From assembly GCA_963833575.1 (NCBI GenBank), contig CAWHXY010000004.1, positions 736,001 through 800,000 on the forward strand: 64,000 nt of DNA, given 5' to 3'. Within the stretch, counting starts at the first letter, position 1. Each line of letters opens with the position of its first letter. Made by a program: the position numbers and the translations under genes. Below are positions 8,506 through 64,000 of this stretch, piece after piece. The notes beneath the pieces are model-generated. The model made no database searches. It was not told the origin of the DNA and saw only the letters and a list, made by a program, of their open reading frames with translations. This DNA is from Candidatus Bathyarchaeota archaeon. GTDB lineage: Archaea > Thermoproteota > Bathyarchaeia > Bathyarchaeales > Bathycorpusculaceae.

Positions 8506-8700
8506 ACCTGTTTGGAGTTAACTGATTAGCTTTTGAGTGTTGAGGGTTTGTTTAAAACTTTGCCGACTCTGCAAAGAAGATTTTGATATTCCTTGGCTCA
8601 AAAAAGAAATAGATGGCTCTACAAGATAATTAGTGGTTTACAGAATAAATTCAGCCTGTTGGAAACATTTTTACATCGCAGACGCAATCGTTGTATCTAA

Positions 8701-8822
8701 GCCGGGGTGGCGGAGTGGTTATCGCGCCAGCCTCGAGATCTAACAAAAGAGGGCTAAGCCAAAAGGCAAGTTAGCTGGTGGGCTTCGCGCCCGCAGGGGT
8801 TCGAATCCCTTCCCCGGCGCCA
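8701..8822 (+). tRNA. tRNA-Ser(CGA) with a 35-nt intron at 37/38 (8738-8772) and encoded CCA
   Basis: GCCGGGG/CCCCGGC acceptor stem, CCAGC/GCTGG anticodon stem, CGA at 8734-8736, long variable arm, GGTTCGAATCC T-loop, BHB-like splice motif. Confidence 0.95.
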
Positions 8823-9038
8823 ATTATAGAAATAGCCATCAAATGCAAACGCGCTTAAGCGTTGGTGTTGACTGGCGTTAATTCGTTTTTAATAAGAAAA
8901 CAATCAGGTGAATAAACATTCTTTTGATTCAAGTAAGTAATTACCTATTTTGCAAGTTTTCTTTCATTGCGGTTATTCTTGCATGTATTGACAGCCTTAA
9001 CTTGCTATTTTTTCATACAAATTCGTTTTGTAAAATAA

Positions 9039-9163
9039 GGGTTTGCTGAGGCTCCGGAAAAAATCTTTTCTTTTAGGAGAAAAAGAAAAAATGCAAATTT
9101 CTTTTTTCACGATCCTATGTCACGCATCGTGAATTTTAACCCGAGCCCACTCAGCCCCAATTT
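9039..9163. repeat. Conserved structured element, copy 1 (orphan)
   Basis: Differs at only 2 positions from 24069-24193; outer stem GCTGAGGCTC/GAGCCCACTCAGC with two inner hairpins. Confidence 0.92.
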
Positions 9164-9413
9164 ACTACTAAAATAGTTAGAAACTAAAAGGGGAAATGAG
9201 TTTTTTTCAGCATTCTAATGGTCGTTACTGTAGCAAATTTCATGGTATTCTTTCCCCTTTTTCTCTTTTGCAAGGTTAGCGATATCTCTTTATAAGATTT
9301 TGCAAAGACTTGCCCTATTTAGCTATTTCATTAATCAGATAAAGCAAAACAATTAAAATAAGAGCAATTTATCACGGATCATTTTATTAACTCAAAAGTG
9401 TAAGCTTCTGGGT

Positions 9414-10118
9414 ATGGCACTCCACAAAAAGGGTCAGACTCAGAGAAAAGAAAATAATTCAATAACAAATAAACAGCAGAGAGTCTGCGAGCGGGTAATC
9501 TCTAATTTCTTAATGATGAGTGCATCAACTTTAGAAGTGCCAGTGCAAAAAGACCAGCTTACTATTGCAGCAGCACAATTTACTGAAGCTCGTGACAGCT
9601 TAAATGCGCACATAAGAATCTCTATAAAAGAAAAAAGTATAGTTTTGGAAAAAGATAACGCGCAAACAACAGTTGATAGCAAGAATGGGAAACATTCACG
9701 AAGCACAAAAACAGTCTCAAAAGAAAAGAAAACGGTTGCCAAACCCAAAATACTAAAAGAAAAGAGCAAAAAAGAAGCTACGATTCAACTCTCAGAGGCA
9801 CCTTCACAAAGTCAGTGTGAAGAAATCATAACTAAATTCTTAGCAACAAAAAGTACAGAAACGCGAACAGCAATAATTCAGCAATTTACTGCTGCAGGAA
9901 TACCGATTGCAAACACAAACACCCAAACACAAACCAATAAAAACTGCATCGTACAAAGCGTAGAACTACATTTTAGCGAAGACAGCAAAAGGTCAGCCGT
10001 ACTTGAATTCATTAAAGCACGAGACAATATGAATGCGCAGATAAAAGTTCGCTTCTCCAAGCAAGGAGTAATCTTAATCAAAGTTGAAAACTCAACAAAA
10101 ACAGTGAAAGAAAACTGA
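9414..10118 (+). CDS. Hypothetical protein with an internal two-fold repeat
   Basis: CERVISNFL..FTEARDSLNAHIRISI versus CEEIITKFL..FIKARDNMNAQIKVRF, joined by a Lys-rich linker. Confidence 0.75.
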   Translation: MALHKKGQTQRKENNSITNKQQRVCERVISNFLMMSASTLEVPVQKDQLTIAAAQFTEARDSLNAHIRISIKEKSIVLEKDNAQTTVDSKNGKHSRSTKTVSKEKKTVAKPKILKEKSKKEATIQLSEAPSQSQCEEIITKFLATKSTETRTAIIQQFTAAGIPIANTNTQTQTNKNCIVQSVELHFSEDSKRSAVLEFIKARDNMNAQIKVRFSKQGVILIKVENSTKTVKEN

Positions 10119-10240
10119 CTTTAACAACATACAGTGGATTAACTAAATTTTTAAGTTTCTTGTAACACAACTTACTCTTTGAATAATAGAAGAGTAATCA
10201 TAAACTTGATATGCAGGTAATTAGTTTCTTAAACAGTTAA

Positions 10241-10368
10241 GGGGTTTGCTGAGGCTCCGGAAAAAAAATTTTTTCTTTTAGGAGAAAAAGAAAAATGCAA
10301 ATTTCTTTCTTCACGATCCTATGTCACGTATCGTGAATTTTTAACCCGAGCCCACTCAGCCCCAATTT
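10241..10368. repeat. Conserved structured element, copy 2 (3' of beta-propeller gene 1)
   Basis: Near-identical to copies 1 and 3; about 65 bp beyond the stop codon at 10434. Confidence 0.92.
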
Positions 10369-10392
10369 TTGCTTAAACTGTTTTTAAAGACT

Positions 10393-10425
10393 AAAAAAAG
10401 AAAAGGGAAAGTTGTTTCCATTTTT
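10393..10425 (-). terminator. Hairpin plus U-tract after beta-propeller gene 1
   Basis: Minus strand reads AAAAATGGAAA-CAAC-TTTCCCTTTT followed by CTTTTTTT. Confidence 0.5.
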
Positions 10426-10433
10426 GCTTCACT

Positions 10434-13073
10434 TTATTGTCGTTTTCTGAGCAGTAGCATCGCGAGAACAGCGCCGATAATGATTATGATAATTATCGTT
10501 GCTATTCCTAAGCTCATGATGTATGACTGGGTTGATGCCAAGCTTATCGGTGTAGCTGTTGGTGCTGCTGTTGCTGCGGTGGTTGCGGTGAGATGTGTTT
10601 CAGAGTATGATGGATAGTACCCGTTTGTGCCTGCGAAAGTAGCATAAATTGTGTAGCTGCCTGGAATTGTGGGTGCCCATGTTAAGCTGTAGCTGCCGCT
10701 TGCGTCGGTTGTTGCGCTTCCGATGGCATAGTGGTTGCCGTTAGAGTCTAAGACTGCGAGCTGCACTGGAACTCCTGTGAAGTTTGTTGGTTCAGGTTGT
10801 TGTTGGTAAACATAGCCCATCCATTCACGCATGCTAGCGTCAGATGATACTGGAACTCCGTTTGGAAAATTACCAGCTACCTGTGTTTGCTTTGAGCCTG
10901 CGGCGATGTCTGTTACTGTGCCTTGTATGACTACGTTGGTTCCTGTATTCACGGTTGTAAGTGGTGCTTGGACTGTGGTTTGACTTGGGCCTCTGCCTAC
11001 AACGTAGATTTGGTTGTCATAGCCGTTGAACCACGTGTTGTAGCCGTCTGCCATAGCGTAGCTGAAGACCAAGAATTCACCCGTGTATCCTGAGATTGTC
11101 CAGATTTCTGCTCCGGTTGTAGCGTTGATTGCGCGGTGCAATCCTCCTTTGAATAGTGGTGATTCAGGTGTGTGTTCTGTTGTAACGAGGTAGACTACTC
11201 CGCTGCCGATAGCGTTAACGAATGTTGGATAGTGAGCGAAAGGTGTTTCTAGTCCTGAATTTGTGCTGTTGCCTTCGCCGCCGTTACCGTATGTCCATAG
11301 AAGAGTGCCAGTCTTTGTATCATAGCAGTAGACTATTCCAGCGTAAGCGCTGACGTACATGTTGCCATAACCGAATCCGTTAGCTAAACTGCCTGATGCT
11401 GGGCTGCCATAGTAGTCAAGGTATGCTTGAGCTGCAGTTGGACCCCAAAGCTTTGCACCTGTATCCAAGCTATATCCTACGTACTGCGAAGTTTCCCTAT
11501 AGTTTTCGGTGAAGACGCGGTTTACTGGGTCAATCCCTGCTGCTAGGACAGTGATATTTCCTGCTGGTGGGTTAAGGGTTTCATGCCATATTATCGAACC
11601 GAGACTGCCGCTGCTTTGGGCAATGTTGATTGTGAAGTATGTGTATGGAGTCCAGCTTGCTGTCCCCATGAAGGTAGTGCCTATTGATGGTAGAGAGCCA
11701 GTGTAACCAAGCAGTATATCATTGGTTGCTCCGAGTTCAGTTACAGGGGCTGCAGTGTTCAGGTATGGTATGGAAACGTTAAAGTCGAACATTCTTGGAT
11801 CTGCTCCGTTAGTGATAGGTGGAATGACAGCAGGTGATGTTGATGCACCATTGTATTGACCAGTCCACAGTCGGGATGAGTTCCATTCTTGCAGATAGTA
11901 TTTTGGAGCGGTTGGAGTGCCAAGGTTGTTCAAGGTTAGTATTATGTGTTCACCGTTTGGACCGAGTATAGTTGTGCCTGAAGGAACGTTAGATACGTTG
12001 AACATTGGGTCGCCTGTGTAAGCATCAAAAGCTTGCCAAGATGACGTGAAAAGAATTGGTGGGTAAACTCCGTGTTGGTTAGAGTCTTGGACATCATAAA
12101 TGTAGGCGAATGACAGTGCAGGTACGTCGGTTCGAGACCAAATGAGTTGTCCTGTTTGCAAATTCACGCAGTCAGTTGGTCCGGTGCTGGCGCCGTTGAA
12201 TGATATTGGTTCAGTGTAGTACAAATATCCGTCAACAATTATTGGATTTTGGTATCTTTGATTGTACGCGGACCCCTCGAAGTATGAGTCTGCCACGATT
12301 GCAGTTTGGTTTCCTCCAACAATACCGCCCATTTGCAGGGGCTTGGTCCACATAACGTGGCTGGTAAGAGAGCCTACTAGGTCTCCTGCTCCGGCATATT
12401 GTTCACCGTTTCCTCCCATGTTAAAAGTATTAGCAAAGCCATAGTATCCTGGCGCACCGGTACCTAGCCAGTTTGATGAAATTGAGTACCAGTTGGTGTT
12501 ATATTGGTATATTGGTCGTGTCCAGTAGTTTGTTGGAAGAGGAGCTAATGGGTAATTGGAAATTGGTGAATTTTGAACGTTGAGAGTTGTCGAAGCACTG
12601 CTGGCTAAATAAGTGTCATTAGTGTATGCGCTTGGTCCAAAAGAGAAGGTGATAAATGACATAACGGGCTCAGTCCATGTGTATACCATTCCTGGGAAAC
12701 TGAAGGTAAGAGTGTACGTGCCAGTTTGGGTAGGCGTGAAGAAATAGTCCTGTGCTGATGTTGAATCCTGTACAATAGGCCAAGTTTGTGTTGTATTTGT
12801 ACCGTCAGGCGCAGTAATGATGAGTTTGTAGTTCTGGAATCGAATATCATTAGCTATTACTGCTCCATCTGGAACCAAGTTAAGCCACATGATAACTTCC
12901 ACTGATTGACCTGTGCCGACTGGGTTTGGTGAAGCATTAATGTAAGCGTAAGTTGGAATCTGCCAAGCAGGTGTGTGTGCGCTGGTAGATGGTAATAGCA
13001 TGACTGATGCCATCATTGAGATTGTTAAGAAGATAGCGATCGCAATAGATTTGGTTTTTAAATTTCTAGACAT
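10434..13073 (-). CDS. Secreted, C-terminally membrane-anchored PQQ-like beta-propeller surface protein (paralogue 1, 879 aa from ATG 13073)
   Basis: Signal peptide ending TSA|HTPAW, repeated TGxxxW blade motifs, Ig-like C-domain, PTATP linker, TM helix plus RKRQ tail; AGGAG RBS at 13085-13089. Confidence 0.88.
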   Translation of the reverse strand: MSRNLKTKSIAIAIFLTISMMASVMLLPSTSAHTPAWQIPTYAYINASPNPVGTGQSVEVIMWLNLVPDGAVIANDIRFQNYKLIITAPDGTNTTQTWPIVQDSTSAQDYFFTPTQTGTYTLTFSFPGMVYTWTEPVMSFITFSFGPSAYTNDTYLASSASTTLNVQNSPISNYPLAPLPTNYWTRPIYQYNTNWYSISSNWLGTGAPGYYGFANTFNMGGNGEQYAGAGDLVGSLTSHVMWTKPLQMGGIVGGNQTAIVADSYFEGSAYNQRYQNPIIVDGYLYYTEPISFNGASTGPTDCVNLQTGQLIWSRTDVPALSFAYIYDVQDSNQHGVYPPILFTSSWQAFDAYTGDPMFNVSNVPSGTTILGPNGEHIILTLNNLGTPTAPKYYLQEWNSSRLWTGQYNGASTSPAVIPPITNGADPRMFDFNVSIPYLNTAAPVTELGATNDILLGYTGSLPSIGTTFMGTASWTPYTYFTINIAQSSGSLGSIIWHETLNPPAGNITVLAAGIDPVNRVFTENYRETSQYVGYSLDTGAKLWGPTAAQAYLDYYGSPASGSLANGFGYGNMYVSAYAGIVYCYDTKTGTLLWTYGNGGEGNSTNSGLETPFAHYPTFVNAIGSGVVYLVTTEHTPESPLFKGGLHRAINATTGAEIWTISGYTGEFLVFSYAMADGYNTWFNGYDNQIYVVGRGPSQTTVQAPLTTVNTGTNVVIQGTVTDIAAGSKQTQVAGNFPNGVPVSSDASMREWMGYVYQQQPEPTNFTGVPVQLAVLDSNGNHYAIGSATTDASGSYSLTWAPTIPGSYTIYATFAGTNGYYPSYSETHLTATTAATAAPTATPISLASTQSYIMSLGIATIIIIIIIGAVLAMLLLRKRQ

Positions 13074-13252
13074 TTTTTTGTTTTCTCCTTTTTTCGATGC
13101 AAAGAGATTCAGGGTGTACATATTTAAAACTTTATAAAAACTTAGAATTTCCTCAAAAAGAATGCAAATCTAATAGTTAAAATGCATTTTTATAAGTTAT
13201 TGTAAAAAAACCATAACAAAAATCCGTAACACCAATTATGTGACAATACACG

Positions 13253-14296
13253 ATGAATTTAAATATAATGAAAAAGTACCATGAACTCAAACGAGGGATA
13301 ATAGTCCTAAACGAACCTGTTAGCGCAGTTCAGGCAAAAATTCTCAAAGAGTTGCTAGCAGATGGCCGCAAAACTGAAAACGAAATAGCCAAAAAAATCA
13401 GCCAAAAAAAAGAAGATGTTAAAAAGAATTTTGCTAAAATGCAAGAAAATGGAATAATCACGGGTGCAACAATACACATTAACTACAAAAAATTTGGCTA
13501 TAAGGCTGTTGCTCACATTCTAATCAATGTTGATCCGAAACAAGAAGATCAGCTAATTGAATGCCTGAAAAAAATGCCAGAGATCTATTCCTTCTATAGC
13601 AGAGGGATCAAAGGAAACATAGACGTTGTTACAACCCTCAAAACTCTTGAACAATTAAACGAAATTAAGGACAATATCAAAAGAGATTTTTCAATTTTAG
13701 AAATGAAAACCGCAATCTGGACAGACGTAAAAGAAATGAACGAAAACTTGGCAATAATTCCAGAGAATAGGAAAAACAAAATTCAAACAGATTATCTTCA
13801 AAGCAAGTCGCAAATAACCAGTAATTCTCAGAATATCGTTTTGGATAAGATCGACCAGAAAATTGCGGATAAATTGTCCGAGAATGGCCGATTGTCAATG
13901 GAGATCTTGGGCAAAGAATTAGATATTGCCCCTGAAATGGCCAAGAGAAGATATGAAAAACTCAAGAAGAATGGCCTCCTAAAGGTGACAATTCAAGTTA
14001 ACCCTACCAAAATAGGATACCAAGCCTTATGCGTCTTTTTCATCACAACTTCGAACGAAAACACATTTTTAATCATTAACAGAATCGGCAGAATACATGA
14101 CATAATAAGCATAATGAAAACGACAGGGGACTATGATCTTCAAATATACGCAATGATACAGGATCTCGATCAATTACTTTCTATTCGAGAAGAACTAGGC
14201 AAAATTCCTGGTATAATGAGAATGGACACAGAAATATTGCGGTTAGACAGATTGCAGAAATGGCCAAGCCCACGCCAGTACACATCAACTTTTTGA
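13253..14296 (+). CDS. Tandem double-domain Lrp/AsnC regulator
   Basis: Two HTH plus effector-domain units (KILKELLADGR and DKIDQKIADKLSENGR), TTGDYDL, C-terminus WPSPRQYTSTF. Confidence 0.9.
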   Translation: MNLNIMKKYHELKRGIIVLNEPVSAVQAKILKELLADGRKTENEIAKKISQKKEDVKKNFAKMQENGIITGATIHINYKKFGYKAVAHILINVDPKQEDQLIECLKKMPEIYSFYSRGIKGNIDVVTTLKTLEQLNEIKDNIKRDFSILEMKTAIWTDVKEMNENLAIIPENRKNKIQTDYLQSKSQITSNSQNIVLDKIDQKIADKLSENGRLSMEILGKELDIAPEMAKRRYEKLKKNGLLKVTIQVNPTKIGYQALCVFFITTSNENTFLIINRIGRIHDIISIMKTTGDYDLQIYAMIQDLDQLLSIREELGKIPGIMRMDTEILRLDRLQKWPSPRQYTSTF

Positions 14297-14420
14297 TTAA
14301 ATCAACCAAAATAGCTAAGAATTTTGAAAAATAGTAATTTCATCTGAAAAAACAAGTAAAACAATAAGAAATCTTAAATTTCATGAATTATCAAAAGTTA
14401 GACAAAAGGGTAAAATTCGC

Positions 14421-15404
14421 GTGCATAAAATCAACGAACTTGATTCACAAATACTAAAAAAACTACTACAAGACGGGCGACGGGGCTATAACGAAATAGC
14501 TGAAGAACACAGAATTTCAGAAAACAAAGTTTGGAAGCGCTGCAGAGCAATGGAGCAAAAAGGCATAATTACTGGAGCAAGCGTTCAGATGAATTTTGGT
14601 CATTTTGGATTCGATGCACTTGTAACTTTGTTAATAAGTGTTGAAGCACAACAAATAGAAAAAGCTATGGAAACCATAAGTCAAGTAACTGACGTAAGAG
14701 CTTATCGGCAGTATAACAGCGTTTATAATATTCGAGCAGTAGCAACTCTCAAGGACCTAAACGAGTTAGATCATTTTAAGCAATTAATCAAACGAAAACT
14801 TCCCACGTTAGGTTTAAAATCTTATATTTGGACAGGGGTCAGAAATATTCCTGAAAACTTAAACCTGACCAATTCTTCCAATGCTTATGACGAAAACATT
14901 GAGCGAAATCAAAGCAACACAATCTCTATGCAAAATGAAGGATACCTAATTGATGAGTTGGACAAACTAATAGTTAACAAACTCACATCAGACGGGGAAA
15001 TGTCTTTTACCCGAATTGCCCAAGAAATGAAATTGTCAACGGACACAGTTTTGAAAAGATACTATAAGCTTAGAAAAAGCGGATCAATAAAAGTTTCAAT
15101 CCAAATTAATCCAAACAAAATTGGTTATAAATCGATCTTGGATTTTAATGTGGCTTTTACAACGCCCGGTAATTTCTCAGATGCGGTGATTGAATCATTG
15201 GCAAGAATACCAGACGTAATCATCATCACAAAAACTAGCGGCGACTTCGATTTGCAAGTGACAGCCATGATAAGAGATATTCCGCAATCTTTCACTATTC
15301 AAGATCAGATATCGAGAATTTACGGAATCACGAAAATTGAAACTAGCGCTAGAAAAATCCCCGACAAATGGCCGACGCCACAACAGTATATATCAACATT
15401 CTAA
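14421..15404 (+). CDS. Tandem double-domain Lrp/AsnC regulator
   Basis: LDSQILKKLLQDGR and DELDKLIVNKL HTHs, TSGDFDL, C-terminus WPTPQQYISTF. Confidence 0.9.
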   Translation: MHKINELDSQILKKLLQDGRRGYNEIAEEHRISENKVWKRCRAMEQKGIITGASVQMNFGHFGFDALVTLLISVEAQQIEKAMETISQVTDVRAYRQYNSVYNIRAVATLKDLNELDHFKQLIKRKLPTLGLKSYIWTGVRNIPENLNLTNSSNAYDENIERNQSNTISMQNEGYLIDELDKLIVNKLTSDGEMSFTRIAQEMKLSTDTVLKRYYKLRKSGSIKVSIQINPNKIGYKSILDFNVAFTTPGNFSDAVIESLARIPDVIIITKTSGDFDLQVTAMIRDIPQSFTIQDQISRIYGITKIETSARKIPDKWPTPQQYISTF

Positions 15405-15548
15405 ATAAGCATTTTTTCCAAAATAATTACTTTATTTACAGAGACAAATCATTTTGCTCCTAGGTTGTTGAGAAAATATTTTACCTTTTTTAGAAGCCCA
15501 TTAAGAATATTCTCGAAATAAAGCCACATAAAAATCTTAAGCGTAGTA

Positions 15549-15659
15549 GTGGTTTGCTTAGGCTCTTGAGTTGTTCCTTAGGAGAAAACGAGCAAAGGCA
15601 AATGTTCTATCATGATTGCAAACTATTATGATTAAGTCAAAGCCAACTGAGCCTCAATT
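15549..15659. repeat. Conserved structured element, diverged copy 4 (orphan)
   Basis: GGTTTGCTTAGGCTC...TTAGGAGAAAA...GCAAAT...AGCCAACTGAGCCTCAATT keeps the same order of landmarks and stems. Confidence 0.75.
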
Positions 15660-15936
15660 CGTCCCTATTATGCGTTTAAGAACTGAAAAAAAGCGAAATA
15701 TTGGTTCTTGTTTAGAGTCAATACTCGGAAAATTTTTTCAGAATAATAGTAAAGAAACTAACCAGGGCCTACTTTTTAAGCAGACGTGTTTCCAATAATT
15801 GGGAACATCAAAAAAGAGAAATCGCAAGTTCATCGGGCATTATTATTAATTAAGATTTTTTTAGTCCAGTCGGTAAATTTGGGCAAGCGGCTGAGAAGCT
15901 TATTATTTAAGAATAGAATTAAATTCCGTGAGCTAA

Positions 15937-16413
15937 ATGGATGGTATCGTAGAAATAGATGATACTGATGAAAAGATTTTACATATATTGATCGAAGATG
16001 CGCATACAAGTTTAAAGGATATTGCGAAGGAATGCAATGTATCGTCCGTGTCTGTTTTAAATAGAATTAAGCGTTTGAAAAACCTTGGAGTGATTACGGG
16101 GGCAACACTCTTCACTGACCTTAGCTTAGTAGGGTTTCACATCGTTGCTACAATTGGAATGGAAACAGACTCAAATTCAGATGAAATCATTAGCTACTTC
16201 AAGCAAAATACATACTTGATCGAGCCAGCGACAAGTGTTGGTGAATATGACTTATGCGCTCTAATCTACGCCGAAAACATTTCGAACTTAAATGAAAAAA
16301 CTGAAGCAGTTAGAAAGCGATTTGGTATAAGAAAAGTAATAGTTAATGTTTGGTCAGGTATACCGCACATCACTTTTGAGAATATTGATCTGAACCCATT
16401 AAAAAAAGGTTGA
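15937..16413 (+). CDS. Lrp/AsnC regulator (resembles N-half of the double-domain paralogues)
   Basis: IDDTDEKILHILIEDA HTH, GVITGAT and VGEYDL. Confidence 0.88.
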   Translation: MDGIVEIDDTDEKILHILIEDAHTSLKDIAKECNVSSVSVLNRIKRLKNLGVITGATLFTDLSLVGFHIVATIGMETDSNSDEIISYFKQNTYLIEPATSVGEYDLCALIYAENISNLNEKTEAVRKRFGIRKVIVNVWSGIPHITFENIDLNPLKKG

Positions 16414-16416
16414 ATC

Positions 16417-16899
16417 ATGGATAAGATAGATTACCTAATATTTAGTGAACTGTTGAAAGACGCTTCTCTTTCATATGTTAAGATTTCACATAAATTAGGC
16501 ATCTCATCGTACACAGTCAGGAGACACTATGAAAAAATGAAAAAAGAAGGAGCAATCCAAAAATGCATCGTGTCTATTGACCTTTCAAAATTAGGCTATC
16601 AGGGAAAAGCATTATTATTAATCACTGTAGCTCCGAACAGCAATAAATCTGACACATTAGCTTACCTTAAGAAAATTAGAAATATTATGGTTATTACAGA
16701 AATAATTGGACCGTATGATATTATTGCAATTGCCCCCATTACGGACCTAAAAAATATTCAAACACTGGTTAAAGAGGTAAGAGAGGCCCCTTGTTTGCAA
16801 AGAGTTGAAATAGCATGTATAGATGACACGCATTTCCCAATAGGACCGAATTTTAACACTATACTTAGTCAAAGATGTTGCGCACTAGCAACAAAATGA
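16417..16899 (+). CDS. Lrp/AsnC regulator (resembles C-half of the double-domain paralogues)
   Basis: MDKIDYLIFSELLKDA HTH, SKLGYQ and IGPYDI. Confidence 0.88.
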   Translation: MDKIDYLIFSELLKDASLSYVKISHKLGISSYTVRRHYEKMKKEGAIQKCIVSIDLSKLGYQGKALLLITVAPNSNKSDTLAYLKKIRNIMVITEIIGPYDIIAIAPITDLKNIQTLVKEVREAPCLQRVEIACIDDTHFPIGPNFNTILSQRCCALATK

Positions 16900-17192
16900 G
16901 GCAAACTTGATATAGCAGTCAAAAGAAAAAACAAAAAACAATTTCTCTGGATTACGTCAGGTCTTTGATAAATATTCTTAGAGTTTGCTAAGAGAAAAAA
17001 ACGCAATTCTTGAAGGTAAGTATCTAAAAGTTGGGAAAAGATCCGGAAAATTTTGCAGGATAGGTTATTCCTCTTCGAAAAGCAGCTAAAATATGTTAGA
17101 GCGTACCATATTTTTAACTCAGTTTTCCTAACTTAATACTTTTAAATCAAAATGAGTCTCAAGCTGTGTATTTAGGTTAATTTTATATCTAA

Positions 17193-17417
17193 ATGAAGAA
17201 TAGTCTATTTATGAGTGGATTTAGCGAAATGGAGAAGATTGCTGAAGGCATCAGTGACTTTGGTGATTTTAGAGCGATTTTGTTCAAAACGTCAGATGGT
17301 CGTCATTTTGTGCGGTTTCTGCCCTTTGAGAACTCGGAAAAACCTCACACGCAGTGGCTTCCTGGTGATGACTATTTGGAATGGCTCAGATGTTGTGATA
17401 AATGTTCTGCAACGTGA
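17193..17417 (+). CDS. Small hypothetical protein with C-terminal CxxC
   Basis: 74-aa ORF ending WLRCCDKC; no family recognised. Confidence 0.4.
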   Translation: MKNSLFMSGFSEMEKIAEGISDFGDFRAILFKTSDGRHFVRFLPFENSEKPHTQWLPGDDYLEWLRCCDKCSAT

Positions 17418-17487
17418 ATTACTCTAATCCAGGGTTAAGTGAGGATATGTAAGAAAGAGTTGTGGACATAACCCCTTTTGCGGATGT

Positions 17488-19341
17488 CTATTCTGTCATG
17501 TAAGTGATGTCATCCCATGGGTGCCTATAGAGGCCCTGCTTTAGCCGTTTTTGGTCCAAAAAGTGGGCTGTCATTCCTATGGTTCTGCCCACAACAAACA
17601 ACCCGTTTAATGCACCCATTTTAATATACTCGTCGGCTTCCTGCTTGGTCATCTCGGTTCTTAGCATGTCAACGAAGCAAATGCCAATGCACCCATCAAC
17701 ATTGAGGATGAGATTGTCTTTCTTGGCTGTTGTCAGCTTTTCAACTTCAAGTGCATAGTCCAAAAGCGGGGTAGCTTTGAAGTGTTTCTTGGCGTATTCT
17801 TTCAGTATAGTTACTCTCTTGTCAGGGTTGTTTACGCTCTTTACCAAGTGCCCGATGCCTTGGATGTTTTCACCCTTTTTCTTCATTTCCTCGACGAACT
17901 CTGCTGGCGTTAAGCCTCTGTCAAAAGCGTCAGAAAAACTCTGAGCAGCTCCGTCGATTGCGCCTCCGAACCGTGGACCGATAGTTAGCATACCGCTTGC
18001 CACTGAGGACATCAAGTCTTTTCCTGCTCTTGCTGCGACTATAGCGTTGTGGGCACCTGACACTGCAGGTCCATGGTCAGCCGTCACCATGATGGTCATC
18101 TCTATAAACTTTGAGGCATATGAGGGGAACTGACGTTTGAACCACAGTATGCTCAATACGCCACCAATTCCTATGTCCTGCTTGAAAACCTCGGAAATTG
18201 GCATCTTACCGTAAAGCAGTTCTTCTCCTCTGTCGTCAGAAATTGTGCATATAAAGTTAGAGGGCTTTCTGATAATCCCTGCTTTCAATGCCTTGGCATA
18301 ATCCATCGGAATCTTCGGTACTGGTGGTTCTGGCTTTGGCTTGATGATGCCCTTTTGAACCAAGTTTTCGTATGTCTCCCTTATTTTTTCGTCGTAATCG
18401 TCGTAGGAGTTTGGAACAATTGCTCCAGCTGCTTTTAGAGCCAAGTTCTTTGCATCTGCAGTTTCCACTTCTGAACCTGCTTTTGCGCCTGCGTGGCCGA
18501 ACTGAACCTCAGTTTTGAATGCCTTGGAACAAGTGCCGGTTACCCAAATAACCAGTGGCTTTGTTATCTTCTTTTTCTTTATAGCTTCAGCGATTTCGTA
18601 TTCTCCCCTGCCCCCTACTTCGCCCAAGCACACCAGCATCTTAATTTCTGGAATAGACTCGAACCTAAGAAGATGATCTAAAAGTGTTGATCCAGGGTGT
18701 GTATCTCCGCCAATTGCAATGCCCTCGTACAGTCCATCAGTGTTTCTAGCAATAATGTTATACGCCTCATTGCTTAGACCACCTGATTTAGAAACAAAAC
18801 CAACAGACCCTGGTCTATGAAGCTTCGACTCTATTATGTTTTCGATTGTACCGCCTGCATTTCCAATTTTAAAGCACCCAGCTTTTATTCCTCCAACAGT
18901 CGCTGGACCGATGATGACCTTTCCAAGTGCTTTCGATTTGGCTGTGAGCAACTTCATTCGCCGCTCCGGCACTCCCTCGGCTATTATCACAATAGTGCGA
19001 AGTTGCGGTATAGCCAACGCTTCATCGGTTGAAGGTGCGGCTGACCTGAAAGAAGCAAAATTAATCATCACATCAGCATTAGGATGCATCATCGCCGCTT
19101 TTTCAATCGTTTTGTAAATGGGGATTAAAATTTCGCGCGTGCCAAAGAAGCACTTTGAGAAGCTATCTGAACCTGTTGGGTTGATGATTGCTGCTACAGA
19201 CGGGGTCTCTCGACCTGAGGCATAGTCAAAATCTAGCATCCGTTGTGTTGCTGCCACTTGGTTGTTATAAATGAATGATTGGGTTTTTTTGGTGAACAAC
19301 TCACTTGAGGGAGTTTGCGCGATTGATTCTTTGTTTGACAT
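17488..19341 (-). CDS. aclA: ATP-citrate lyase large subunit (CoA-binding, phospho-His and citryl-CoA lyase domains)
   Basis: [39 protein letters not shown] and LNVDG. Confidence 0.95.
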
Positions 19342-20655
19342 TTACTTTGCTCCCTTCAACGCCATTGAAACAATCTTGGTCATATGAGTTTCTGGTCCGA
19401 AAACTTCAATTGGCACACCTATTTTTTCGCCAAGCGCTCTCATCTGACACAAGCCCTCCAGATAGTTGGGTCCGCCCCTTCGGACGTATATCTTGACCTT
19501 ATTCTCTTGGAGATTCTTTTGGTGTTCTTTAAGGGCTTTGATTATGCCTTTGAAGGTACTTGCGACATCAGTAAAGTTTGCTATGCCACCACCTATTATC
19601 AGGAATTTGCCTTTCGGGTTTACCTTTCTGGTCATGAGGTCTAGTATTGTATTGGCGTAGAGATAGGTGAACTCCTCGCTTGGGTCACCTGAATATTCCC
19701 CGTAATTAGCCAGTTCGGTTATGTAGCCTAGATCAGTAATCGTATCAGCATAGATGACAGAGGCACCACCGCCTGCAACCATGGTCCATACTCTTCCTTC
19801 CGGATTGAGGATGGTTAGTTTCAATGAGGCCCCAGTTTTTGAGTCTAAGTCTTCGATGTAAGCTTCTTCTTCAGTCGGAGTTCTCCCAAAAGGAACCGGA
19901 AACTCTATTTTGCCCCACTTCTCGCCGCTCTCAAATTCGGCACAGCTGTCCAGCTTGGATGCCAAATCTAGTGGGATAACCGAATCCTCTGTTACTACAA
20001 TCGGGTTCATTTCCAAATAGGTGAAGTTTAGATCAGCATAAAATTTGAATAATGCTTCTGTGAATCCTGAAAGGCACTTACTGTGGGTAGCTGCAACTTT
20101 TTCTAGTAGTTTTTTCTCGATTTCTGCAATGCTTGGAAACTTGCCGATGGGCACCTCCAAACGCAATGCTTTAGCGTCAACGTCCCCGACGTCTACACCG
20201 CCTTCAGGGTAGAACAGGATAGTATCTCCATCTCTAGTCGACATTATAGCGAGGTAATATTCATCCTGATTTTTGTGCGGTACCAGTGGCTCGATAATAA
20301 AATGTGTCAGTTGACCAATTGTCCCCTTGTCCGCGGGATTTCCGTTGGCATCAAATTTACCGTAGATAGTTATCGGTCCTTTTGACTTCTCTTCTATCCA
20401 TGCTTTGGCTTGGTTGTAGTTTGCGCCTGCAAGAATTAGGTTATTCTTTCCTCTACGCTTTATCAATTGGTCGGGTTTTACAACCAACTTCTCTGTTGTT
20501 AGCCACTTATTTTCATTCAGCAGCTTTGTCATATCGGTTTGTGGTCCAACCGTGACAATCTTATCAGAAATATTGTACTCTCCGTGTGAGTAATCTTTCA
20601 AGAGACGGGCTAGCATGCGCTTACCGTCTGCTTCTCTGATTGCTTTATGCGCCAT
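19342..20655 (-). CDS. aclB: ATP-citrate lyase small subunit (ATP-grasp and citrate-binding domains)
   Basis: MAHKAIREADGK, KPDQLIKRRGK, WTMVAGGGAS, NYGEYSG, GGGIANFT and RRGGPNY. Confidence 0.95.
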   Translation of the reverse strand: MAHKAIREADGKRMLARLLKDYSHGEYNISDKIVTVGPQTDMTKLLNENKWLTTEKLVVKPDQLIKRRGKNNLILAGANYNQAKAWIEEKSKGPITIYGKFDANGNPADKGTIGQLTHFIIEPLVPHKNQDEYYLAIMSTRDGDTILFYPEGGVDVGDVDAKALRLEVPIGKFPSIAEIEKKLLEKVAATHSKCLSGFTEALFKFYADLNFTYLEMNPIVVTEDSVIPLDLASKLDSCAEFESGEKWGKIEFPVPFGRTPTEEEAYIEDLDSKTGASLKLTILNPEGRVWTMVAGGGASVIYADTITDLGYITELANYGEYSGDPSEEFTYLYANTILDLMTRKVNPKGKFLIIGGGIANFTDVASTFKGIIKALKEHQKNLQENKVKIYVRRGGPNYLEGLCQMRALGEKIGVPIEVFGPETHMTKIVSMALKGAK

Positions 20656-20667
20656 TATATTCTCCCA

Positions 20668-21891
20668 CTATTCAAGCTTCTGTTTGAGCCTTTTGGCAAC
20701 CTCAGCAATAAACTCCTCGGTGTAAACTTGTCTATTGTTTGGGTCCGACGTTGCAACAATCATCAAGTCACCGGTCATAATACCGCTTTCAACAGTCTCA
20801 AGAGCCGCATCCTCCAACTTTTTCGCGAAATCCACAACTTCCGGCGTCTTATCCAACTCACCTCTCTTTCGCAAGCAGCCAGTCCAAGCAAATATTAAAG
20901 CCATGGAGTTACTTGAGGTCTTTTCACCTTTCAAGTATTTGTAATAGTGTTTCTGAACCGTGCCATGAGAAGCTTCGAACTCATAAAATCCTTGAGGGCT
21001 AACAAGCACAGAAGTCATCATTGCCAAACTACCATAAGCTGAGCCCAACATATCGCTCATAACATCGCCATCATAGTTTTTGCAAGCCCAAAGCATACCG
21101 CCTTCCGTCTTCATTATTCGTGCAACAGCATCATCAATTAAAGTAAAGAAATACTCGAGTCCTGCTTCTTTGAATTTGGATTTCCAGTTTTTCTGGTATT
21201 CTTCTTCGAATATCTTACGAAAATCCGCATCATATGTCTTAGAAATTGTATCCTTAGCGCCAAACCAAACATGAAGTTTCTGGTCATATGCATAGGTGAA
21301 GCAGGCTTTGGCAAAGCTGGAAATTGATTTATCAGTATTATGAATGCCTTGAATGACTCCTGGACCTTTGAAATCTTGAATTGTTCCTCGCCAAAGTTCC
21401 TTGCCCGCAGCGTTTGTGAATACCATCTCGGCCTTTCCTTCTTCTGGAACCCTGTACTCACAGTTCTTGTAAACATCTCCATAGGCGTGTCTTCCTATGT
21501 GGATTGGTTTCTTCCAAGATCTAACTGCCGGAGGAATATTTTTCACAAGGATCGGTGCCCTGAAAACCGTGCCATCTAAAGCTGCTCTAATGGTGCCGTT
21601 TGGGCTACTCCATTCCTTCTTCAAATTATATTCTTTAACGCGGTCTTTGTTTGGAGTGATAGTGGCGCATTTTACTCCGACACCGTATTTCTTTATGGCG
21701 TCTGCTGCTTCTAAGGTTATTTTGTCGTCAGTTTCGTCTCTCTTTTTGAGTTGAAGGTCATAATATGCCGTGTTCATGTCGAGAAAGGGTAAAAGGAGCT
21801 GATCTTTAACCATCTTCCACATTATTCTCGTCATTTCGTCTCCGTCTATTTCGACGATCGGTGTCTTCACATTTATTTTGCTCAATCTCAT
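20668..21891 (-). CDS. icd: NADP-dependent isocitrate dehydrogenase, subfamily II (eukaryote-like)
   Basis: [35 protein letters not shown] and EASHGTV. Confidence 0.95.
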
Positions 21892-21902
21892 TCCTCAATC
21901 AT

Positions 21903-23834
21903 TTATTTTACTGTATAGGAGAGCAGTCCGCCCTCATAGAGAATGTCTTTTTGTCTCTGGGAAAGGTTGTAGGTAAGCTCTATTTGGAGATTCTTGGTCT
22001 TGTTTACAAGGATGACTGGTTCATTATTCTGCAGTTTCTTCTTGATGCCTGGAATTTCAATCTCATCTCCTTGAGCTATTTTGTCGTAGTCAGCCATATT
22101 CTTGAAGGATAGCGAGATTATTCCGAAGTTAACAAGGTTGGCTGCATGGATTCGCTCTACCGACTTGGCTATGATCGCTTTGACGCCTAAGTACATTGGG
22201 CACAATGCAGCGTGCTCTCTAGAACTTCCTTGACCATATGATTCGCCAGCAACTATTACGATGTGCAATCCTTTCTTTTTTGCTTCCATTGCTCTCTTGG
22301 GGAATGCTGGGTCAATCGGCTCGAAAACAAATTCTGAATATTTGGGCACGTTGGATCTGTATTTTAGCCTTGCTCCAGCCGGCATTATATGGTCTGTAGT
22401 AATTTTGTCTCCGACTTTTATTCCGACAATGCCCTTTATTTGCTCGGGCATTTTGTCGTTTACTGGTGGAGTGCCTATGTTTGGTCCCCTAGCGATTTCA
22501 ATGTTTTTGTCAGATTCTTTGGGGAATATGAACATTGAATCATCAATTAGAAATTTCGTTGGCATGTTAACATTTGGGTATTCGAAGCCTGCATTTCTTG
22601 GATCAGTAAGTTTACCTGTGATTGCAGCTATAGCTGCGACTTCAGGGCTTACGAGGTAGACCTGAGCGTCTGAGGTTCCGCTTCTTCCTTCGAAGTTTCT
22701 GTTGCTTGTTCTGAGCGATACGCCGGTAGTCTTGGGACTTTGGCTGTTGCCGATACAGAATCCGCATGCTGCCTCTAGAAGCCTGGCGCCAGAATCTAGT
22801 AGGTCAAGGATGTAACCGTCTCTTGTCGCCATCTGCAGAACTTGTCTCGAGCCGGGTGCAACTCCAAATGATACGTCAGGATGGACTTTTTTACCCTTTA
22901 TTATCTTTGCTACTGTGGCTATTTCTTTGTAGGAGGAATTTGTGCAGGAACCGACCATTATTTGATCCACTTTAACATCTTTCAGTTCGCTTACTTTGAC
23001 AATGTTGCCTGGGCTGTGAGGTGCTGCAGCAAGTGGTTCAAGCGTACTAAGATCAAGATCGATTACTTTGTCGTACTCAGCGTCGTCGTCAGCCTTTAGC
23101 TCAATCCAATCTGCTTCTCGACCCTGTGCTTTAAGAAACCTCTTTGTCTCCTCATCTGAGGGAAATATAGAAGTGGTAACACCCATTTCGGCGCCCATGT
23201 TTGTGATTGTTGCTCTTTCTGGAACCGTAAGGTTCTGCACTCCAGGTCCAGTGTACTCTATTATGACACCGACATTGCCTTTTACTGTGAATATGTCCAG
23301 CATCTTCAAGACAACGTCTTTGGCGCTGACCCAGGGCTGAAGACTTCCCCTTAGATTTATCTTGTAAACTTTTGGGCATGTTATGTAGAATTCTCCGCCG
23401 CCCATTGCAACAGCTACATCCAGACCTCCTGCTCCAATAGCTACCATACCGATGCCTCCGCCGGTGGTCGTGTGACTGTCAGATCCAAGGAGCGTCTTTC
23501 CAGGCTTACCAAATCTCTCCAGATGGACTTGATGGCATATTCCGTTACCTGCCTTTGAATAAATTACGCCATATTTGGCCGCTACTGTCTGAAGGTACTT
23601 ATGATCATCAGCGTTTTCGTAACCCACTTGGATGGTGTTGTGGTCAACATAGCTAACAGAAAGCTCTGTTTTCACCTGTTTGAGTCCCATTGCTTCAAAC
23701 TGCAGGTATGCCATGGTTCCTGTGGCGTCCTGAGTGAGAGTTTGATCAATCTTTATGCCTATCTCGTTTCCAGGTATGTATTCTCCGACCACCAGATGTT
23801 TTTCTATTATTTTTCGAGTAAGGGACTTTCCCAT
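21903..23834 (-). CDS. Aconitate hydratase (short single-chain type)
   Basis: QDATG, GICHQVH, GSDSHT, GSCTN, CGFCIG and GSSREHAA. Confidence 0.93.
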   Translation of the reverse strand: MGKSLTRKIIEKHLVVGEYIPGNEIGIKIDQTLTQDATGTMAYLQFEAMGLKQVKTELSVSYVDHNTIQVGYENADDHKYLQTVAAKYGVIYSKAGNGICHQVHLERFGKPGKTLLGSDSHTTTGGGIGMVAIGAGGLDVAVAMGGGEFYITCPKVYKINLRGSLQPWVSAKDVVLKMLDIFTVKGNVGVIIEYTGPGVQNLTVPERATITNMGAEMGVTTSIFPSDEETKRFLKAQGREADWIELKADDDAEYDKVIDLDLSTLEPLAAAPHSPGNIVKVSELKDVKVDQIMVGSCTNSSYKEIATVAKIIKGKKVHPDVSFGVAPGSRQVLQMATRDGYILDLLDSGARLLEAACGFCIGNSQSPKTTGVSLRTSNRNFEGRSGTSDAQVYLVSPEVAAIAAITGKLTDPRNAGFEYPNVNMPTKFLIDDSMFIFPKESDKNIEIARGPNIGTPPVNDKMPEQIKGIVGIKVGDKITTDHIMPAGARLKYRSNVPKYSEFVFEPIDPAFPKRAMEAKKKGLHIVIVAGESYGQGSSREHAALCPMYLGVKAIIAKSVERIHAANLVNFGIISLSFKNMADYDKIAQGDEIEIPGIKKKLQNNEPVILVNKTKNLQIELTYNLSQRQKDILYEGGLLSYTVK

Positions 23835-24068
23835 AAATGTCTCATCCTATGGAAAGACTTGTTTTTCTTATGTGCATATAAAGGTTGTCAATTTATGCGA
23901 CAACCAGCAATCTATGTTTACGTAAACAGTCTTAATTTAGAATAGTGTCTAAACAACAATACAAAAAGAAACTAAATTTCAAACCAAACTATTTTTGACT
24001 TCGCCCACTTAAGAATATAGTAGCGATCATGATAAAACGCTGCTAGGATGATCGATCTTTGAGCAGTA

Positions 24069-24193
24069 GGGTTTGCTGAGGCTCTGGCAAAAATCTTTTC
24101 TTTTAGGAGAAAAAGAAAAAATGCAAATTTCTTTTTTCACGATCCTATGTCACGCATCGTGAATTTTAACCCGAGCCCACTCAGCCCCAATTT
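24069..24193. repeat. Conserved structured element, copy 3 (3' of beta-propeller gene 2)
   Basis: Near-identical to copy 1; about 60 bp beyond the stop codon at 24252. Confidence 0.92.
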
Positions 24194-24215
24194 GCTCCTA
24201 AAATAGTTTGAGACT

Positions 24216-24250
24216 AAAAAAGGGGAAATGCTAGTTTAGTTTAGCATTTT
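24216..24250 (-). terminator. Hairpin plus U-tract after beta-propeller gene 2
   Basis: Minus strand reads AAATGCTA-AACTAAAC-TAGCATTT followed by CCCCTTTTTT. Confidence 0.55.
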
Positions 24251-24251
24251 T

Positions 24252-26905: not shown

Positions 26906-27112
26906 ATTTTTTCTTCCTATATTTCTGTGAGAGTCTCATTAGCAACCAAGGTGTATTTAGATTTTTCGTGTTTTAGAAAAAAAGCCCTAAAAAAGGAGAA
27001 AATATACGACATAAAAGTATACTTTCAAGATTATTTGCTACCACTAATGCTTAGTTTATATTTTCTTGATTTTGAGAATACTTAATTAGGCAGTTTAAAA
27101 AGAAAAGGACTA

Positions 27113-28090
27113 ATGAGAACAGAGATTGACGCAATAAACGCCAAAATTCTAAGGGAGTTACTCAAAGATGGACGCAAGAGTTTCGCAGAAATTGCGAAGG
27201 AGAGCAATACTTCAAAAGATGTTATCGCAAAACGTTACAGACAAATGAAAGATAAAGGAATCATAGTTGGGGCTACGATACAGAATAGCCCTGCTTGTTA
27301 TGGGGGTAACTTTGTTGCGGGTTTCTACGTCTTCACTCAACCAAACAAGGCGGAGTTTGTACTGCAACTAGCCAAAAAAATACCTCAAGCAATTGACGTT
27401 TTTCGTTTGAGTATTAACCCAAGTTTGGCAGTCATGGCAATTATGAAAAGCATAAGTGAATTGGACCAGATCAAACAAGTAATAAAGACTATGCCTTATG
27501 TTGTGGATGTAGATACAAGACTGTATACAGAAATAAAAAATAATCCAGACAATTTATCGATATTAATGGAAGAGAGCGGCAAAAAAAATGATAACGAAAT
27601 TGTGAAAAAGAAAACGCTGAAAATAGTTGATATTAAAATTGACAAAATTGACTCTCAAATAATTGAAAAACTTGCAACAAACTCTCGTTCGCCCTTTAAA
27701 CAAATCGCTTTAGAGCTGAAGGTCTCAACTGACACAGTTATAAGAAGGTATGAAAGACTAAAGAAAAATGGAGAAATTAGAGCGATAATACAGATAAACC
27801 CCACAAAAATAGGCTATTATGCGTTCGCTGTTTTCAATTTGTCCTTCATTTCCCAAGATAATTGGCCTGAAAAGATGGAGGCTCTTGCCAAGATTCCAGA
27901 TATCAATTTCATATTTAAGACAACTGGCCAATTTGACTATCTAGCAAGTTTATGGGTAAAAGACATCAATCAATTAGTGGACGTCAAAGAAGAAATTGCC
28001 AGCATGCCGGGCCTATCAAAAATGGAAATAGCTGTAGAAAGAGCACTTAGTGTTTGGCCAATTCCCAGAGAAGTTATATCAACATTTTAG
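27113..28090 (+). CDS. Tandem double-domain Lrp/AsnC regulator
   Basis: KILRELLKDGRKSFAEIA and DKIDSQIIEKL HTHs, TTGQFDY, C-terminus WPIPREVISTF. Confidence 0.9.
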   Translation: MRTEIDAINAKILRELLKDGRKSFAEIAKESNTSKDVIAKRYRQMKDKGIIVGATIQNSPACYGGNFVAGFYVFTQPNKAEFVLQLAKKIPQAIDVFRLSINPSLAVMAIMKSISELDQIKQVIKTMPYVVDVDTRLYTEIKNNPDNLSILMEESGKKNDNEIVKKKTLKIVDIKIDKIDSQIIEKLATNSRSPFKQIALELKVSTDTVIRRYERLKKNGEIRAIIQINPTKIGYYAFAVFNLSFISQDNWPEKMEALAKIPDINFIFKTTGQFDYLASLWVKDINQLVDVKEEIASMPGLSKMEIAVERALSVWPIPREVISTF

Positions 28091-63974: not shown

Positions 63975-64000
63975 GAAAATGGGCTGAGTAGGCTCTGGTT
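63975..64000. repeat. Conserved structured element, copy 5, inverted and truncated by the window end
   Basis: GGGCTGAGTAGGCTCTGGTT versus GGGCTGAGTGGGCTCGGGTT (reverse complement of copies 1-3). Confidence 0.65.

Follow-up and report, generated by a model that had tools for sequence, protein, structure and literature searches.

A repeat behind surface-protein genes

The window analysed here, a stretch of 64,000 nucleotides (nt) from the genome of a Candidatus Bathyarchaeota archaeon (GenBank assembly GCA_963833575.1, contig CAWHXY010000004.1, positions 736,001 to 800,000), contains several copies of a repeat of 95-128 nt, hereafter 'the element', alongside two members of a gene family for secreted surface proteins. 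The host belongs to the Bathyarchaeia, abundant uncultured archaea of sediment and peat. We find that the element is a new conserved structured repeat tied to this multigene family in Bathyarchaeia, and that it mirrors the translation initiation region of the family's own genes; the resemblance is real, family-specific and conserved across species.

Working downstream from the first of these genes, paralogue 1 (10434-13073, minus strand) encodes a secreted protein of 879 amino acids (aa) that has a PQQ-like beta-propeller and is anchored in the membrane at its C-terminus; its Shine-Dalgarno (SD) sequence, spacer and ATG lie at 13071-13089 (minus). Element copy B (10242-10363, minus) starts 71 nt past the stop codon of paralogue 1, with a conserved, terminator-like C-rich/U-rich tract in between (10392-10410, minus). 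Further on is copy A (9039-9158, minus; 112 bits with covariance model R1), an orphan with no intact paralogue adjoining; sequence comparison places a relic of the last codons and U-tract of a paralogue beside it, at ~9160-9260. Paralogue 2 (24252-26905, minus) has a start region made up of AGGAAG, spacer and ATG (26903-26919, minus); its frame is interrupted at a (CA)5 run (26810-26820) that separates the signal peptide from the mature part. Copy C (24069-24188, minus) is attached to it, starting 64 nt past its stop codon beyond the terminator-like tract TTTCCCCTTTTTT (24216-24228, minus). Two further orphans complete the set: the degenerate 'copy 4' (15550-15655, minus) and an intact copy of 116 bits (G000:C4:799980-800089) that is cut by the window end (63980-64000, plus).

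The gene family comprises about 30 secreted proteins of 840-1070 aa in this genome, and the closest relatives of paralogue 1 come from peat and soil metagenome-assembled genomes. In a Pfam scan both window paralogues match the PQQ-like beta-propeller, with an additional Ig-like match below threshold for paralogue 1; the translation of paralogue 2 has a hydrophobic stretch near the C-terminus, followed by RKRP.

Genome-wide, an nhmmer profile finds 26 copies of the element at E < 1e-8 plus weaker fragments, and the covariance model finds 27; the model also matches 21 of the 24 other genomes of the genus (1-22 matches each) and, among 16 genomes taken from the order's other families, one (15 matches). 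Eighteen of the 28 nhmmer rows lie 51-64 nt past the stop of an open reading frame (ORF) of at least 842 aa, and in all 18 the strand carrying AGGAG is antisense to the gene, and a preliminary description of the window likewise regards the element, when read in the gene direction, as antisense to a ribosome binding site (RBS) and AUG. Amongst relatives (other Bathyarchaeia) there are 48 model matches in 79 paralogue loci, each on the gene strand (48/48); in 35 of 63 relatives' loci (those whose ORF is complete and whose flank reaches 300 nt or more) the element begins 51-96 nt past the stop, including behind genes just 33-38% identical to paralogue 1. Tandem gene-plus-element units occur in the genome, as do intact orphan copies without a gene upstream. 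At gathering thresholds no Rfam family matches the element, the only passing hit being a tRNA at 8701-8819, and the weak matches on 8950-10450 (best E 0.2-0.3) are far under those thresholds. A full-text literature search on repeats, surface proteins, noncoding RNA and miniature inverted-repeat transposable elements (MITEs) in Bathyarchaeia/Bathyarchaeota turned up nothing relevant among the papers listed. The family is missing from Rfam, and its copies in metagenomes can be sought with the covariance model and alignments.

The mirrored start region and its fold

On the plus strand of copy A, positions 9075-9093 read AGGAGAAAAAGAAAAAATG, and the minus strand at 13089-13071, which ends in the ATG of the 879-aa ORF of paralogue 1, reads AGGAGAAAACAAAAAAATG; as the preliminary description had reported, the two are identical at 17 of 19 nt, with an 11-nt spacer in each. 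The mirrored region as a whole (9075-9099, plus) consists of SD, 11-nt spacer, ATG and CAAATT, its minus strand thereby presenting an anti-AUG followed by an anti-SD. Allowing up to two mismatches, the 19-mer has three sites in the window (9075, 24105, and 13071 on the minus strand) against 0.02 expected from 100 shuffles, none of which reached three. Outside the element copies, three of the four such sites in the whole 2.75-Mb genome are paralogue start regions; the same is true for all three sites of a 25-mer that extends into codons 2-3 (up to three mismatches), and in one paralogue start region elsewhere in the genome (G000:C4:397517-397541) the identity is 25/25, running into codons 2 and 3. 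The resemblance between element and start region is real and specific to the gene family; it is no chance outcome of A-richness, a caveat attached to it earlier. Two details of the same description also hold: copy 4 retains AGGAGAAAAC, and the start region of paralogue 2 (ATAGGAAGAAAAAATATG) is a poorer match.

The start regions of the family, in this genome and in relatives, follow the pattern (A/U)AGGAGAAAA(G/A)AAAA-AUG-(C/A)AA(A/U)U, and the unpaired parts of the element are its reverse complement; a complementarity that extends into codons 2-3 of the MQI start common to the family. Of 100 distinct copies, 81 retain CTCC and 71 GCAT, with both present, 6-18 nt apart, in 68. The 3' end of the 16S rRNA of this genome is GATCACCTCCT, so the exposed UCUCCU of the element resembles the ribosome's own anti-SD.

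Following the element in the gene direction, we encounter in turn the 5' arm of a terminal helix (P1), a hairpin (P3), a second hairpin (P2), the single-stranded stretch CUUUUCUCCUAA and the 3' arm of P1. P1 is a 17-bp helix with two bulges, formed by the arms GGGGCUGAG..GGCUCUGG and CCAGAGCCUCAGC..CCC; P3 is a hairpin of the form CACGA...UCGUG, and P2 carries the loop UUUGCAUU. The resulting fold is a three-way junction. Across 53 copies from this and related genomes, aligned by fitting to the fold model and hence in a manner favouring structure, pairing holds in 93% of cells and, out of 26 pairs, 20 have changed on both sides; values reached by none of 500 shuffles.

Which strand is folded can be judged from the pairs that are not Watson-Crick. 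On the gene-sense strand such cells are G-U in 65 cases and A-C in 23, the difference being concentrated in P2 and P3 (42 vs 8; P1, 23 vs 15); when the same 53 copies were realigned to a mirror model built on the AGGAG strand, gene-sense wobble still led by 55 to 27. Folding energies compared with shuffles point the same way (z -4.2 for the minus strand, -2.8 for the plus strand). Modelled in this manner, the data favour the gene-sense strand as the folded one, in keeping with the gene direction in which the preliminary description reads the element. Its picture of CUCCU displayed in a hairpin loop applies to a subset of copies only: the minus-strand fold of copy A has this arrangement, with a 6-nt loop, yet the hairpin needs an extra pyrimidine-purine insert that is present in ~11 of the 26 copies folded. 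In copies without the hairpin CUCCU occupies a single-stranded junction, apart from three copies in which it falls within an extended stem. Overall, the predicted probability of CUCC being unpaired has a mean of 0.86, as compared with 0.49 across the element interior, and is 0.77 with the leader included. Self-masking by the leader, a semi-conserved GGAG-A-rich sequence immediately preceding the element, was considered and rejected: GGAG is found in 32 of 99 leaders, and CUCC-leader pairing is predicted in 6 of 67 copies.

Predicted pairing, a proposed mechanism and its rivals

The preliminary description had suggested comparing the pairing of the element with paralogue 5' regions to that with other SD-led genes, and here the paralogues come out as the stronger partners. 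Using predicted duplex energies between the anti-start-site segment of the element and 37-nt start-region windows, the median is -18.8 kcal/mol for 30 paralogues, -12.9 for 573 other GGAG-led genes (Mann-Whitney p 5e-10 against the paralogues) and -9.1 for all 2,787 other ORFs. Paralogues hold 10 of the top 40 ranks among 2,817 genes, and the remaining top genes share no theme. Within this genome, elements are better partners for paralogues that lack an element than for those that have one (-21.3 vs -15.0, p 1.7e-4, n 14 vs 16). All eight of its ATGCAA starts fall into the element-less class, and the paralogue whose start region matches the 25-mer perfectly retains just a decayed element, one that lacks CUCC. 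Such a contrast, itself unconfirmed, would suit either action in trans or avoidance of self-pairing. As preferred targets the element-less paralogues had to be dropped, the difference not being reproduced in the 63 relatives' loci (-16.0 vs -15.9, p 0.81), where the ATGCAA start occurs in 6 of 28 vs 3 of 35 (p 0.17).

Taken together, the sequence, position, orientation, covarying fold, strand asymmetry, complementarity and predicted motif exposure of the element are matters of observation; from these we infer its transcription, the stability of the RNA, pairing in the cell and the direction of the effect. The mechanism we propose, tentatively and as somewhat less than an even bet, is that a read-through isoform of the untranslated 3' region (3'-UTR), or a small RNA (sRNA) derived from the 3' end, base-pairs with start regions of the family and reduces translation from them. 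In this reading the element is a structured RNA module peculiar to the family and added behind its members. RNA polymerase would at times pass the U-tract terminator of the gene, and the ~110-nt unit would then be transcribed and fold as the three-way junction, with P1 clamping both ends and P3 and P2 as hairpins; a terminal clamp of this kind would suit a stable RNA. The unpaired P2 loop UUUGCAUU is the complement of AAUGCAAA, that is of the start codon and codon 2, whilst the unpaired junction CUUUUCUCCUAA complements the family SD and A-rich spacer and resembles the CCUCCU of the 16S rRNA 3' end. The long 3'-UTR isoform, or an sRNA processed from it, could thus pair with family mRNA starts and block ribosome binding, the outcome being negative feedback throughout the family, or cross-repression. 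That the paralogues are expressed in a mutually exclusive manner, as entertained in the preliminary description, is pure conjecture.

A number of observations weigh against repression by a 3'-end RNA, several of them concerned with whether the element is transcribed at all. The U-tract that the preliminary description had seen between gene and element exists and is conserved: in the majority of gene-linked copies TTTCC(C)C-T6-8-AG, preceded by an A-rich stretch, is found 28-33 nt ahead of the element. The identical motif follows paralogues that have no element, and so belongs to the gene. To judge from its sequence it looks like an archaeal U-tract terminator, in which case the main mRNA probably stops short of the element. 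Within the element, U5-U6 runs stand immediately 5' of CUCCU on the gene-sense strand; these could end transcripts ahead of the P1 3' arm, which would fit the weaker wobble asymmetry in P1. That weakness, together with the relatedness of the copies (the counts are not independent), also tempers the strand assignment. According to one study (PMC8716108), archaeal U-tract terminators usually have four to seven U, termination efficacy grows with the number of U-tracts, and these terminators frequently leak, several consecutive termination sites that give rise to 3'-UTR isoforms being present in over half of the transcription units of Methanococcus maripaludis; on this account, read-through into the element is plausible. 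Assembled contigs of one metatranscriptome (X3) and of three DNA runs were compared over 8600-27200. RNA contigs of a relative's orthologue cover the coding sequence of paralogue 1 (10442-13079) at ~90-97% identity, and among the RNA contigs listed none lies on an element, the uncovered parts of assembled contigs allowing no inference. Among the joints listed for the contigs, there is no strand-changing one between a start region and an element.

Specificity is a further difficulty. Thirteen genes outside the family that combine GGAG and an A-rich spacer are about as good partners for the element as the paralogues are (-18.5 kcal/mol); specificity therefore lies in the unusual start region of the family, which the element mirrors. 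Over 53 gene-element pairs, moreover, elements pair no better with their own gene than with permuted ones (-14.69 vs -15.35 kcal/mol, 97% of permutations pairing at least as well), which speaks against the suggestion that the RNA folds back on its own 5' end, and the own-5'-region specificity expected of an icaR-type 3'-UTR repressor is absent. Element identity also runs free of gene identity: in 17 gene-element pairs the elements are 62-96% identical and the proteins 20-69%, without correlation (Spearman 0.055, Mantel p 0.29), such that two elements may be 94% identical next to proteins sharing 35% identity, or 90% identical next to proteins sharing 24%. Lastly, paralogue 1 in the window is followed by copy B, by 1.08 kb of other sequence, by copy A and by the tRNA, and a single element stands beside the tRNA both in a relative's 73%-identical orthologous locus (L059) and in a metagenome contig (X2, joint 9060 to 10423). 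Copies of the element bound an indel, and the RNA model predicts neither the indel nor the uncoupling.

These last two features fit the main rival, namely that the element acts at the DNA level, as a recombination or attachment site or as a site-specific mobile repeat, by which surface-gene units and small cassettes are gained, lost and exchanged. The element would then be an imperfect palindrome that folds on one strand, with the mirrored start region captured or incidental. The 19-nt arms are nearly invariant across species, and distal arms occur alone (G000:C4:104007 and C7:458490), as does a half copy at C6:200297; a solo proximal arm was not found in the arm search. At G000:C4:104007-104808 two arm-like motifs in direct orientation flank a ~790-bp two-ORF cassette. 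Tandem gene-plus-element units would be at home in such a scheme, and the terminators kept by element-less paralogues would make the element an optional add-on. Yet the single orientation and narrow stop distance fit co-inheritance or function better than free transposition, and the conserved loops and anti-start-site are unneeded by a site defined by its arms. None of five PF00589 tyrosine-recombinase loci adjoins an element cluster (the nearest is ~12 kb off), the single Y1 transposase locus lies elsewhere, again with no element cluster adjoining, and no consistent target-site duplication is seen, AAATT-like flanks occurring on both sides in a few copies only. Read directly, the element ends (GGGGCUGAG... 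and ...CUCAGCAAACCC) carry neither of the integron core sites RYYYAAC / GTTRRRY. We consider a DNA-level role possible, though rather doubtful. A combination of both ideas, quite improbable in our estimate, would make the element an archaeal counterpart of attC without an integron: a recombination site folding on one strand at the tail of every surface-protein gene, by which gene-plus-element cassettes and small cargo, a toxin-antitoxin-like pair for example, would be inserted, cut out and shuffled, and whose transcript would also silence siblings through its anti-start-site. If true, one module would couple diversification of the surface repertoire with control of its expression.

Three further explanations were weighed. 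Lying just past the primary U-tract, on the gene strand and with U5-U6 runs, the element might be a fail-safe terminator or a transcript-stabilising 3' structure for highly expressed surface genes, the complementarity being mainly base composition. As far as sequence can tell, runs of at least four U do mark the gene end (T6-T8 in the spacer, U5-U6 in the element), and other genes with A-rich spacers pair equally well; the rise of efficacy with the number of U4 tracts and the frequency of consecutive sites also agree with it (PMC8716108). Base composition, on the other side, leaves CUCC (81/100), the GCAU loop (71/100) and the match to codons 2-3 unexplained, and intact orphan copies persist without an upstream gene. 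Nor do we know of any requirement in archaeal termination for a 17-bp clamp and two conserved hairpins, and overall we regard this explanation as unlikely. The mirrored region could alternatively be the functionless relic of an old inverted duplication of a gene 5' end, carried along by a repeat kept for other reasons. The lack of covariation between an element and its own gene would be natural for a relic, as would the better pairing of element-less paralogues in this genome, though not in relatives; we nonetheless think it very unlikely, the anti-SD and anti-AUG having kept both their conservation and their unpaired state in lineages where the neighbouring protein shares only 33-38% identity with paralogue 1. 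Finally, the plus (AGGAG) strand might be the working one, offering a genuine RBS and start codon to a mini-ORF or giving an antisense transcript that converges on the gene. SD, 11-nt spacer and ATG are all present on it, and covariance models of the two strands score the copies about equally. In the 43 copies with SD and ATG that were parsed, however, the ORF is 1-87 codons long with no conserved peptide; the ATG is lost in ~3 of 10 copies, wobble pairs favour the opposite strand, and the flank on the upstream side of the plus strand is not conserved, all of which makes this reading highly improbable.

Comparison with known systems and further features

The closest parallel for the proposed repression is the icaR mRNA of Staphylococcus aureus, in whose 3'-UTR an anti-SD motif is reported to pair with the mRNA's own 5'-UTR (PMC3868564). 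In both cases a pyrimidine-rich anti-SD lies downstream of the coding sequence and is complementary to the RBS of the same kind of mRNA, with translational repression proposed, and the exposed stretch complementary to the SD is present here too (CTCC in 81/100 copies, unpaired at 0.86). The element differs in being multi-copy, in forming a three-way junction, in concerning a whole paralogue family of an archaeon and in lying beyond a U-tract terminator; it mirrors the start codon and codon 2 as well, lacks specificity for its own gene, and has a putative transcript whose pairing is predicted. S. aureus RNAIII is reportedly a trans-acting RNA with C- and U-rich anti-SD loops, and bacterial 3'-UTR-derived sRNAs arise from the 3' end of coding genes. 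Like these, the element has a conserved, accessible seed complementary to target starts, with target enrichment (the 13 non-family genes with GGAG and A-rich spacers pairing equally), and the 3' end of a gene as its proposed origin; unlike them, it is present in ~27 near-identical copies per genome, is known from the DNA, and its proposed targets are the host genes' own family. Judging by sequence features, membership of the element in the icaR-type or anti-SD sRNA kinds cannot be claimed, own-gene specificity being absent.

For a DNA-level role the obvious comparison is the integron attC site, which has the core sites RYYYAAC / GTTRRRY and in which it is mainly structure that is conserved. 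Both lie 3' of an ORF in fixed orientation, as strand-asymmetric, imperfect palindromes of 60-140 nt with extrahelical bases, and the element likewise bounds gained or lost segments. It differs in having no core sites and no adjacent integrase or attI (PF00589 loci were checked, a domain not specific to IntI), in the conservation of its sequence, and in that the genes here own their start regions and are mostly dispersed. To judge from its search listing, an archaeal-integron preprint (10.1101/2022.02.06.479319) contains no occurrence of 'Bathyarchaeota'. Repetitive extragenic palindromes and bacterial interspersed mosaic elements (REP/BIME) and MITE-type repeats (PMC3184786) are likewise short, structured, multi-copy, intergenic and often 3' of genes, and the Borrelia lipoprotein-gene stem-loops (PMC2775950) are reportedly linked to surface-protein genes. 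From all of these the element is set apart by its strict linkage to one family, single orientation, fixed stop distance and mirrored start; it has the terminal inverted repeats of a MITE (17-bp imperfect inverted arms), whereas dispersal in either orientation (48/48 and 18/18 copies lie in one) and consistent target-site duplications are not seen. The Sma/Cla repeat of Neisseria, said to lie 3' of every pilin locus and to act in DNA recombination, resembles the element as a conserved repeat at the 3' end of members of a variable surface-protein family; we know of no reported RNA fold or anti-SD content for it, and a recombination role of the element is only suggested.

To our knowledge, nothing is known of post-transcriptional gene regulation in Bathyarchaeia, and the element is a concrete candidate, open to testing, for archaeal translational control through 3'-end RNAs as well as for the coordinated control of a variable surface. 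Should a DNA-level role prove true, surface-gene turnover would have in it a cassette boundary of a new kind.

A viral origin of the element was considered and set aside, the distal arm being found once in 2.9 million viral contigs. The lone contig concerned (L137, IMG/VR, 26,980 nt) has a truncated element copy at 1-74 (39 bits); after it comes a secreted repeat protein of 481 aa, membrane-anchored and from a different family. The contig is probably archaeal or proviral DNA. At G000:C4:206598-209354 (minus) the genome itself encodes a secreted protein of 918 aa that failed a phmmer comparison with paralogue 1 (E cut-off 1e-5); alignment puts its identity to the family at 20-24%, and a typical element, 90% identical to that of its neighbour, lies 52 nt past its stop.

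Copies A and B are direct repeats, and the 1.08 kb that separates them (9160-10241), absent from L059 and the metagenome contig, contains a 234-aa ORF (9414-10118, plus) with no Pfam or NCBIfam match. In the cassette at C4:104007-104808, which stands beside a tRNA-like stretch, the two ORFs (109 and 75 aa) overlap; at a guess they form a toxin-antitoxin-like pair. Three of the five tyrosine-recombinase loci (G000:C1:827, C2:778 and C4:4201) lie no more than 5 kb from a contig start, a position suggesting that the assembly broke at mobile elements. The tRNA of the window (8701-8819, plus) contains an intron; it scores 47.7 bits with the Rfam tRNA model and is missed by ARAGORN, and with respect to it copy A is ~220 nt downstream.

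Amongst the neighbouring genes there is a cluster of Lrp/AsnC-type regulators (13253-14296, 14421-15404, 15937-16413 and 27113-28090, all plus), three of which have duplicated helix-turn-helix domains and two of which are transcribed divergently from paralogues 1 and 2. The idea of a dedicated regulator beside each paralogue was rejected, such a neighbour being present at only 7 of 31 paralogues; an Lrp operator or DNA-looping function for the inverted start-region copy, which was considered only, leaves the covariation unexplained.

In paralogue 2, the frame of the signal peptide (ATG at 26905) is out of register with the 856-codon mature frame at the (CA)5 run, where one added CA unit would give an in-frame VNAHTHTPAW, like that of paralogue 1. 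The break could reflect slipped-strand on/off switching, a pseudogene or an assembly error.

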